Shown here piece after piece: positions 3,375-4,121 of a DNA stretch of 64,000 bases (positions within the stretch are counted from its first letter, which is position 1; every line of letters begins with the position of its first letter). Source of the stretch: an uncultured Candidatus Saccharibacteria bacterium. GTDB lineage: Bacteria > Patescibacteriota > Minisyncoccia > Phycocordibacterales > DATDWN01. Position numbers and translations under genes: made by a program. The notes below the pieces were generated by a model. It searched no databases. It was not told the origin of the DNA and saw only the letters and a program-made list of their open reading frames with translations. Where the stretch lies: NCBI GenBank assembly GCA_964576615.1, contig CAZNUU010000002.1, positions 27,428 through 91,427 on the forward strand. Direction: 5' to 3'.

Positions 3375-4121
3375 TTATTTAGACCTAAGCTTCCAATCTT
3401 CTATTTTTTTGTGATCTCCTGAAAGAAGGACTTTTGGAACTCGATATTTTTTACCTTTATATGTAAAAACCTCCGGTCGAGTATAAACATCATGACTTGA
3501 GACGCGAGATTCCTCAAGAGATGAGAAATTGCCTAAAATCCCTTTTACTTGGCGCGAAATACAATCAAGAAAAACCATTGCTGGTAATTCTCCTCCAGTT
3601 AGAACATATGGACCAACAGAAATCTCTTCCATTTTGAATACCTTTTTTACTCTGGCATCAATCCCTTCGTATCTACCACAAACCAAGATAATATCTGTAA
3701 ATTTCTTTGCGGTAGTCTTTGCATAACCTGTCGTAAATTGTTTACCTCCGGGTGAGAAAAAAACAATTTTTATTTTTGCCTTCCTATTTTTCCTTGCTTT
3801 CATTATTGCTCTTTCAACTGCTTTTATTGTTGGCAATGCTTGAATAACCATCCCTGGACCACCACTGTATGGTTTCTGATCCACTCTTTTCCTAAACCAG
3901 CTTCGCTGGTCGGACGATCCGCCTTTAGCGGATTTAGTCCACTTATTTTCTACGTAATCTCTAGGATTATAAAAATTTACTTTTATTTTTCCCGACGCTT
4001 TCGGTCGGGACCCCGATCCCTTCTGGCGTCGGGGTTTATTACCAATCGCCCGCGAGATAATTGACTCATTTAGATATGAGTCGAAAGCTTTTGGAAAAAG
4101 GGTAATTATATGAAAATTCAT
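3375..4121 (-). CDS. trmD: tRNA (guanine37-N1)-methyltransferase TrmD, with two in-frame GC-rich insertions
   Basis: MNFHIITLFPKAF N-terminus, PYSGGPGMV SPOUT motif. Insert peptides KPRRQKGSGSRPKASGK and AKGGSSDQRSWFRKR are encoded by elements at 3991-4035 and 3891-3940. Confidence 0.85.
   Translation of the reverse strand: MNFHIITLFPKAFDSYLNESIISRAIGNKPRRQKGSGSRPKASGKIKVNFYNPRDYVENKWTKSAKGGSSDQRSWFRKRVDQKPYSGGPGMVIQALPTIKAVERAIMKARKNRKAKIKIVFFSPGGKQFTTGYAKTTAKKFTDIILVCGRYEGIDARVKKVFKMEEISVGPYVLTGGELPAMVFLDCISRQVKGILGNFSSLEESRVSSHDVYTRPEVFTYKGKKYRVPKVLLSGDHKKIEDWKLRSK
3891..3940. repeat. Mini-element family I, copy 2, in-frame in trmD
   Basis: cctaaaccagcttcgctggtcggacgatccgcctttagcggatttagtcc. 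Shares CCTAAA/hairpin CCAGCTTCGCTGG/TCGGRCGA/TTTAG-CC architecture with 115-169. Confidence 0.75.
3991..4035. repeat. Mini-element family II, copy 1 (CCCGACGC-N4-CGGTCGGG...GCGTCGGGG), in-frame in trmD
   Basis: cccgacgctttcggtcgggaccccgatcccttctggcgtcgggg. Same core is present in rnr at 6477-6540. Confidence 0.7.

Follow-up and report, generated by a model that had tools for sequence, protein, structure and literature searches.

We examined a 64,000-nucleotide stretch of DNA (contig CAZNUU010000002.1, positions 27,428 to 91,427) from an uncultured Candidatus Saccharibacteria bacterium, referred to below as the window, which has a mean GC content of about 40% over its 64 kb. The gene under study is trmD (3375-4121, minus strand), whose coding sequence hosts two short, GC-rich segments that we call insert A and insert B. 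The product of this open reading frame (ORF), 248 amino acids long, matches the Pfam family PF01746 (E 2e-31), has TrmD proteins as its best solved relatives in the Protein Data Bank (PDB; E about 1e-34) and retains the VDxxPYxGGPGM and SPGG motifs. An AlphaFold model computed with a 120-sequence alignment keeps the TrmD fold (mean predicted local distance difference test score, pLDDT, 76.5), and with this model Foldseek retrieved solved TrmDs at E about 1e-17, including the Haemophilus influenzae tRNA complex 4yvi. By family match, fold and motifs the protein is thus a TrmD, the m1G37 methyltransferase of the SPOUT class. The closest database proteins are labelled Candidatus Zambryskibacteria, Parcubacteria or Patescibacteria, and the host is a Parcubacteria-type bacterium with a small genome; in what follows, L numbers denote relatives' loci and P numbers TrmD proteins among the 120 closest (64-87% identity). 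The TrmD proteins of these relatives are mostly 215-219 residues long, typically 216-218, versus 248 in the window.

A first-pass annotation of the window had pointed to two GC-rich palindromic segments in trmD, a description that coordinates, GC islands and folding against shuffled sequences all bear out. Insert A (3990-4034, minus strand; 45 nucleotides, CCCCGACGCCAGAAGGGATCGGGGTCCCGACCGAAAGCGTCGGGA) occupies codons 30-44, encodes PRRQKGSGSRPKASG and is laid out as tandem GC-rich hairpins, CCCCGA..TCGGGG and TCCCGAC..GTCGGGA. Insert B (3891-3938, minus strand; 48 nucleotides, ACTAAATCCGCTAAAGGCGGATCGTCCGACCAGCGAAGCTGGTTTAGG) occupies codons 62-77 and encodes TKSAKGGSSDQRSWFR; it consists of CTAAA, hairpin 1 (ATCCGC/GCGGAT), the linker TCGTCCGA, hairpin 2 (CCAGC-GAA-GCTGG) and TTTAGG. 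Between them lies a native trmD stretch of 17 codons (3939-3989, minus strand; 51 nucleotides, KIKVNFYNPRDYVENKW) that aligns without gaps to all relatives. Both inserts sit in the 5' third of the gene and reach a GC content of 0.55-0.63 in 40-nucleotide windows, versus 0.23-0.35 in nearby trmD. Folded as sense RNA, insert A yields -27.4 kcal/mol (z -3.8) and insert B -24.3 kcal/mol (z -4.5), in each case with none of 200 dinucleotide shuffles as good, and both are found among the 38 most stable 56-nucleotide segments of the 64 kb (lowest 0.5%). Neither contains a stop codon, and the resolved coding copies of such elements measure 45, 48 and 51 nucleotides, which keeps the frame. Translational bypass, an intron or an intein were considered and rejected, as there are no stops, the reading frame is maintained by the insert lengths and neither segment is long enough.

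Since the DNA alignment shows clean empty sites in relatives, the combined gain amounts to 15 + 16 = 31 residues, hydrophilic and basic, and not to the roughly 40 first estimated; likewise, the inserts occupy two separate loops rather than one, and the peptide originally assigned to insert B covers its second half only. In the PDB alignment, residues 25-78 of the query (53 residues) stand where Anaplasma TrmD has about 22. In the model, insert A falls between helix 2 (22-26) and strand 2 (47-51) and takes the form of a coil whose pLDDT is under 50, and insert B forms a protruding helical hairpin of two short helices (60-66 and 70-80, pLDDT about 70). The latter belongs to the loop running into the tRNA-contact motif VDxxPYxGGPGM and ends three residues ahead of D81. 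In H. influenzae TrmD, Asp50 reads G36 and Gly59 holds the A38 phosphate, with Tyr54 and Arg52 also at G36- or phosphate-contact positions (PMC5372744). The segment VDQKPYSGGPGM of the window protein corresponds by motif to VDDRPYGGGPGM of H. influenzae, and by this motif-based correspondence, as distinct from a structural superposition, D81, Y85 and G90 would be the counterparts of Asp50, Tyr54 and Gly59; the Arg52 position is occupied by K83. The residue three positions past insert B is therefore probably the aspartate that recognises G36.

Comparison with trmD of close relatives, which had been suggested as a check, identifies both segments as insertions. About 106 of the 120 closest TrmD proteins carry neither and commonly read RAIEDK-KIKVSFYNPRDYSDDKW-KRVDQKPYSGGPGM; a conserved, AT-rich long loop was not encountered among them. 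An A-type insert is present in six proteins (the window, P0002, P0004, P0032, P0065 and P0080) and a B-type insert in seven (the window, P0003, P0020, P0021, P0026, P0048 and P0051), and the window protein is the only one of the 120 with both. The two are independent of each other, as P0002 (87% identical) has A only and P0003 has B only. At the DNA level, the empty site for A reads GATAAA|AAAATTAAAG (L003 and others) and that for B reads AAATGG|AAAAGAGTGGA. An assembly artefact was rejected, because independent assemblies contain these inserts at identical positions. Because the B site of P0070 holds an insert of another kind and the TrmD proteins of relatives have inserts at three or more further sites, the view that TrmD loops are permissive to insertion is supported.

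This patchy distribution at fixed sites could also have arisen by homologous recombination, with trmD alleles being replaced, or by repeated precise deletion, instead of repeated transposition. The carriers are scattered on a neighbour-joining tree of TrmD, in which A and B carriers often pair together, and the tree itself is built on 216 columns without support values. Most A carriers (the window, P0002, P0004 and P0032) share an unusual GN before the insert where ED is common, so that a single origin of A fits. Insert B is flanked by a direct repeat, GGA...GGA, and its precise loss would restore AAATGGAAAAGA. Exchange or loss at trmD leaves unexplained the paralogous copies in other genes that are described below, and as an account of the whole pattern we consider it improbable.

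Both segments belong to repeat families that recur in other conserved genes of the window, and these are two different families, as first proposed: insert B is a member of family I and insert A of family II. The family I pattern (CCGA-N0-1-CCAG-N4-GCTGG-N0-1-TTTAG) has three matches in the window versus none in 100 shuffles. Besides insert B, one copy (115-167, minus strand) lies in a PIF1-like helicase gene that runs off the start of the window, where it encodes ..NLIARSSEAGFREKG.. and where the L003 orthologue has a 14-residue gap. The other (17995-18044, plus strand) is in dnaE (15525-18773) and encodes AKPSDNSVARSSEAGFRE; here DnaE exceeds its Taq counterpart by about 24 residues (between residues 880 and 885). 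All three are found within 18 kb and none in the other 46 kb. The family II pattern (CCGACGC..TCGNGGNNCCGAC..CGTCGG) has two matches, insert A and a copy in rnr (5529-7511). The rnr copy (6478-6537, plus strand) consists of three CCGAC/GTCGG hairpins with a minimum free energy of -34 kcal/mol and adds a net 16 residues (APTRDAVGGPTSDNDSRGVGRD), which are absent from rnr of L001, L002, L003 and L005. Hairpins of the form CCGAC..GTCGG occur four times in the window versus 0.22 expected, and all four are in insert A and the rnr element. In total, five in-frame copies (two in trmD, one each in rnr, dnaE and the PIF1-like gene) are each absent from relatives or from solved homologues, as is typical of elements of the kind of the Rickettsia palindromic elements (RPE).

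The two families differ in layout, family I being a tagged hairpin doublet (CTAAA-hairpin ... hairpin-TTTAG) and family II a tandem of CCGAC/GTCGG hairpins. MITEs, which derive from cut-and-paste transposons, have terminal inverted repeats and a target-site duplication of fixed length. The ends of family I form a 5-nucleotide inverted repeat, CTAAA/TTTAG, always with GG before and AGG at the end; a target duplication of 2-3 nucleotides or a target preference is possible. Translations of family I differ by host gene (KSAKGGSSDQRSWFRKR, ARSSEAGFREK and DRPTSKAGLG), and because the element is read in different frames, the repeating unit is the DNA and not a peptide or a protein module. This bears on whether the inserts are simply loops that lengthened in one lineage under selection on the protein, for instance for basic residues that bind tRNA, and have nothing to do with any repeat. 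Both peptides are indeed basic, and B, modelled as two short helices, ends just before the G36-recognising aspartate (PMC5372744). Against this, the same DNA is found in other genes and other reading frames, and palindromes rich in GC stand in a gene that is rich in AT. Conservation is also higher for the nucleotides than for the amino acids and, as described below, a change that preserved base pairing altered the protein. Selection on the loops as protein is already contradicted by these data and is the least credible of the explanations considered here.

We favour, with a probability of about 0.6, the reading that the N-terminal domain of TrmD acquired two unrelated short GC-rich hairpin repeats, on separate occasions and in two of its surface loops. 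Being multiples of three and free of stops, the insertions would be read through, and the 15 + 16 residues would loop out of an otherwise intact enzyme. In an essential gene, only frame-preserving insertions in tolerant loops would have survived. The inserts are members of small families resembling RPE and repetitive extragenic palindromic (REP) sequences, present also in rnr, dnaE, the PIF1-like helicase and, in relatives, the gene for ribosomal protein S16. Spread may have occurred by single-strand hairpin transposition, with a HUH tyrosine transposase resembling the REP-associated tyrosine transposases (RAYT) acting in trans; the copies may then have been retained vertically over long periods, with some re-copying in the vicinity of trmD.

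Conservation of insert B at the nucleotide level complicates this picture. It is 92-96% identical among the window, L002, L007 and L008, versus 56-76% in the flanking trmD codons; in one comparison, 46 of 48 positions are identical versus 88 of 141 in the flanks (Fisher p 2e-6). In the stems and linker of B, 10 of 14 third codon positions show no variation, versus 1 of 47 in the flanks (six orthologues, Fisher p 1e-7). Across seven orthologues the stems are either invariant or compensated and flanking synonymous sites are saturated. Differences fall mostly in the two loops, whose positions are about as diverged as the flanks (hairpin 2 loops read GAA, AAC, GGA, GAC or AAA), and the L018 copy has two linker substitutions besides. 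Given that the loops have diverged as far as the flanks, long divergence under constraint on the stems fits better than a recent arrival, and insert B looks old and nucleotide-constrained. In hairpin 1 of the L017 orthologue, a C-G pair has become T-A by a double change, one side of which replaces Gly with Arg, and hairpin 2 of this orthologue has been rebuilt as six pairs, CCATGC-TACT-GCATGG, lengthening the insert to 51 nucleotides. Insert A is identical in L001, and its variants in L005 and L019 show compensatory stem changes: hairpin 2 reads TCCCGAC/GTCGGGA both in the window and in L019, but GGCCGAC/GTCGGCC in L005. Overall, A is 35/45 identical between the window and L005, equal to the flanks.

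Stem maintenance extends to family I as a whole. Over 11 copies, the sequence of hairpin 1 is nearly always different and always fully paired (5-15 bp), with three to four pair types per position, which none of 5000 arm shuffles matched; these covariation counts were made by script because the MAFFT alignment misplaces the variable hairpin. Sequence conservation is seen in the linker TCGYCCGA, in hairpin 2 and in the CTAAA/TTTAGG ends, and the sole non-Watson-Crick pairs are G-T, on the sense strand. Such features raise the possibility that family I is a motif of structured RNA or single-stranded DNA that is linked with the trmD locus and retained by the host. It could be a protein-binding site, a signal for mRNA stability or processing or a translation-pausing signal, displaying the single-stranded linker UCGCCCGA between a sequence-free and a sequence-conserved hairpin, with the encoded peptide as a tolerated by-product. 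The invariant third positions, the full pairing of hairpin 1, the sense-strand G-T pairs and the L017 hairpins, of which hairpin 1 kept its pairing at the cost of an amino-acid replacement and hairpin 2 was rebuilt, all agree with this, as does the sense orientation of every coding copy. On the other hand, arm-to-arm correction or copy-to-copy conversion could mimic compensation (two L017 copies share their hairpin 2, see below), the element is absent from most trmD genes of the clade, and it has no Rfam match. A search with Rfam 15 found only tRNAs in the window, the best score over 3800-4150 being 22 bits versus a threshold of 79, and a relaxed architecture search returned no family of known RNAs. 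Comparison by eye with a hammerhead-like ribozyme core, with integron attC boxes and with a mimic of the tRNA anticodon arm gave no fit.

How family I is distributed beyond the window bears on the same question. We ran a strict 22-base pattern on GTDB (185,579 species genomes), the JGI metagenomes and IMG/VR, which gave three matches in GTDB contigs (one genome per species), five in the JGI metagenomes and none in the viral contigs of IMG/VR; on this last result a viral origin was rejected. All named matches are Patescibacteria. Three of these eight unbiased matches lie inside trmD, where a uniform model gives p about 1e-7, and they do so at three sites: L009 has its copy at the B site, L011 in the loop that precedes the SPGG strand and L013 in a loop of the C-terminal domain. 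A profile search of the collected loci added a degenerate copy in the C-terminal tail of L011 trmD (L011 5300-5358) and copies shortly past the trmD stop codon, 14 nucleotides in L002 (10710-10743) and 22 nucleotides in L017 (786-819). Family I is thereby known from four sites within trmD and from a position just past the gene. The L017 downstream copy has the same derived CCATGC/GCATGG hairpin 2 as the copy at the B site of that locus, which suggests local copying or conversion. The C-terminal-loop peptide NGRPIRKADLG of P0020 also back-translates to what may be a family I variant. Local re-copying, an unusual tolerance of TrmD loops or a function linked to the locus are all possible reasons for this concentration.

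Other copies stand apart from trmD, which argues against a motif that serves this locus alone: beyond those in dnaE and the helicase gene, they lie in an rRNA spacer and at intergenic places, and at least two of the intergenic ones (L010 and L012) are antisense to flanking genes or rRNA. The L010 copy (3865-3933) is 40-100 nucleotides upstream of a gene for a SPOUT methyltransferase of the SpoU/TrmH type (3972-4727), a link that may be coincidence, and its hairpin 1 is at the same time the terminator-like hairpin of the gene that precedes it. The L012 copy (9830-9893) is in the 23S-5S spacer; the 23S rRNA match of this locus (6213-9822) spans 3610 nucleotides versus a 2925-nucleotide model and has two tRNA matches inside (7690-7900), which suggests large insertions in the 23S rRNA gene. 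The L014 copy lies about 300 nucleotides upstream of a tRNA, and the L016 copy downstream of a 556-residue ORF, possibly an aminopeptidase. For family II, L005 rpsP (7466-7530) contains an in-frame doublet of this type (CCCCGAC..GTCGGGG and AGCCGA..TCGGCT) in the C-terminal extension of S16, and single intergenic hairpins of this type occur in L003 and L012.

Weighing the pairing and the trmD association against these scattered copies, we regard a host-retained structured motif as possible, if rather unlikely. A more specific form, slightly more doubtful again, is that family I is a conserved, strand-specific nucleic-acid module with its home at the trmD locus of Parcubacteria-type bacteria. 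With equal reserve, the module can be pictured as a variable hairpin followed by the invariant linker UCGCCCGA and then by a constant one, with CUAAA/UUUAG closing the structure; host-level selection would keep it within the coding sequence as a binding or processing signal. It is pure speculation that its partner might be the KH-domain protein encoded just upstream.

Several observations weigh against the insertion of mobile hairpin repeats, the reading that we prefer. The 64-kb window encodes no Y1 transposase, and ten further ORFs (7.7-21.7 kb) scanned against Pfam include no transposase; in the loci examined, no RAYT flanked by family I or family II sequences was seen. Copy number outside the window's genome is very low, at eight strict-pattern matches in GTDB and JGI together. 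Changes among the orthologues of insert B are confined mainly to loops and compensated stems next to saturated synonymous flanks, and long residence under such constraint is not what a purely parasitic resident copy should display. Finally, family I is concentrated in and beside trmD, a pattern that random transposition followed by filtering would not predict. A mobile island in the GC-richer region at 7.7-15.3 kb was also considered and rejected, because this region holds syntenic core genes (SMC, RNase III, NusB-NUDIX and RNase HII).

With regard to mobility itself, a relative offers a candidate enzyme. L002 contains a RAYT-like Y1_Tnp gene (15142-15768). REP_Tyr_transpos is the top NCBIfam match of its product (E 8e-16, which does not reach the curated cut-off), and near-identical TGTCAAAG..CTTTGACA hairpins border the gene on either side (15140-15160 and 15779-15799). 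These represent a third hairpin type, neither family I nor family II; elsewhere in the 16 loci compared, the hairpin occurs only in loop 2 of L008 trmD, in frame (801-819). As the mobilising enzyme, this RAYT-like transposase is only a lead. The first-pass annotation had described a permissive hotspot occupied by elements that are, or were, actively mobile: tolerant loops, repeat families and past mobility of inserts A and B are supported, and activity in the present goes beyond what these data demonstrate.

Among known systems, the RPE come close in many respects. They too are palindromic repeats that sit in frame in conserved genes, many of them essential, of a genome that is reduced and rich in AT; translation turns them into hydrophilic surface loops, they are polymorphic between relatives, and they lack a transposase of their own. 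Here the host phylum is different and copy number much lower, and nothing points to a relationship in sequence, although no comparison with RPE consensus sequences was made; given the different phylum, membership in the RPE families by descent is unlikely. RPE-1-type elements are also longer than the 45-51 nucleotides of the elements studied here. In addition, unlike RPE, family I combines one sequence-free hairpin with a sequence-conserved one and clusters at one locus. The GC clusters of yeast mitochondria provide a further parallel: these mobile palindromes, rich in GC, populate a very AT-rich genome and are in some cases in frame within a protein gene (var1). The parallel is by analogy only, given an organelle and a different sequence.

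REP and REPIN sequences share with our families the 20-25 nucleotide hairpins arranged as doublets, a short motif conserved at their outer foot (in family I, CTAAA ... TTTAG), compensatory stem variation and positions downstream of genes and sometimes inside them. A relative (L002) also has a RAYT-like gene flanked by inverted hairpins, which are of the third type, whereas the RAYT gene of a REPIN-RAYT system stands next to its cognate REP. Whereas REP are high-copy and mostly extragenic, the three family I and two family II copies of the window are all intragenic, and there are at most tens of copies where REP have hundreds. REP of the GTAG and CGTC super-families carry their tag unpaired at one end of a 5-13 bp stem (PMC3733652); the family I tags, CTAAA/TTTAG, are neither of the GTAG nor of the CGTC type. 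Family II resembles the CGTC REP families 1-4 (Di Nocera et al., 2013) in that its arms contain GCGTCGG, it forms dimers, lies within genes and has no dedicated transposase. CGTC REPs are defined by stems of 8-9 bp starting with A-T pairs, loops of 4-5 nucleotides, an unpaired CGTC tag and a CCA tail (PMC3733652), whereas the CGTC of family II takes part in a stem made of GC pairs only, the loops measure 4-10 nucleotides or longer, and both the A-T start and the CCA tail are missing. Intragenic REP singles or dimers that encode 20-30 residues, often in replication or repair genes, have been reported from Rickettsia conorii, Opitutus terrae and others, and RPE-4 and RPE-6 of R. conorii are counted among the intragenic CGTC REPs (PMC3733652). 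Families I and II thus behave like intragenic REPs or RPEs and are not members of the GTAG and CGTC super-families as defined. Our literature search, in a limited library and hence no proof of novelty, returned no description of such elements in the candidate phyla radiation (CPR) or Patescibacteria.

These elements extend the notion of selfish DNA inside protein-coding genes to the Patescibacteria/CPR, whose genomes are usually called streamlined. For annotation of CPR genomes they represent a concrete source of the many odd loop insertions found in conserved proteins, recognisable as GC-rich, palindromic and polymorphic among relatives. TrmD is an antibiotic target with many solved structures, and the inserts map natural permissive sites on it, one of them three residues from what is probably the aspartate that reads G36. 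The nucleotide conservation of insert B, together with the repeated association with trmD, is a hint that some of these elements have been put to use.

Some further observations concern trmD, its surroundings and other repeats. In L008 trmD (487-1260), codons about 160-172 hold an in-frame palindrome, TTTTTTCCGCCTCATCGGCGGACTCACCGATGAGGCGAGAAAAA (-27.6 kcal/mol), that encodes SASSADSPMRREK after KKIF; related peptides are found at the same TrmD site in P0065 and P0107, and the palindrome looks like a fourth element type. L005 rnr has a separate 12-residue insert (ASRFTKATQDKQ). Upstream of trmD in the window, between it and the KH-domain gene, is an 80-residue ORF (4173-4415, minus strand; GC 0.5-0.65) with a lipoprotein-like N-terminus (MRFYLVVFLLMTGAC...). 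As L001 has nothing there and L005 and L007 have different small ORFs, this spacer is variable. A third GC-rich repeat family of about 55 nucleotides, with three hairpins and roughly 90% identity by eye, has three copies in the window, all intergenic: 3169-3224 downstream of trmD, 7544-7602 (reverse complement) downstream of rnr, and 35556-35612 between two minus-strand genes. The 75-residue ORF at 3101-3328, which overlaps the first of these, is probably spurious. Lastly, a C-rich tract of 101 nucleotides (61143-61243, GC 0.65) is located at the 3' end of a minus-strand ORF (61144-62007), where it would encode a Gly-rich tail.

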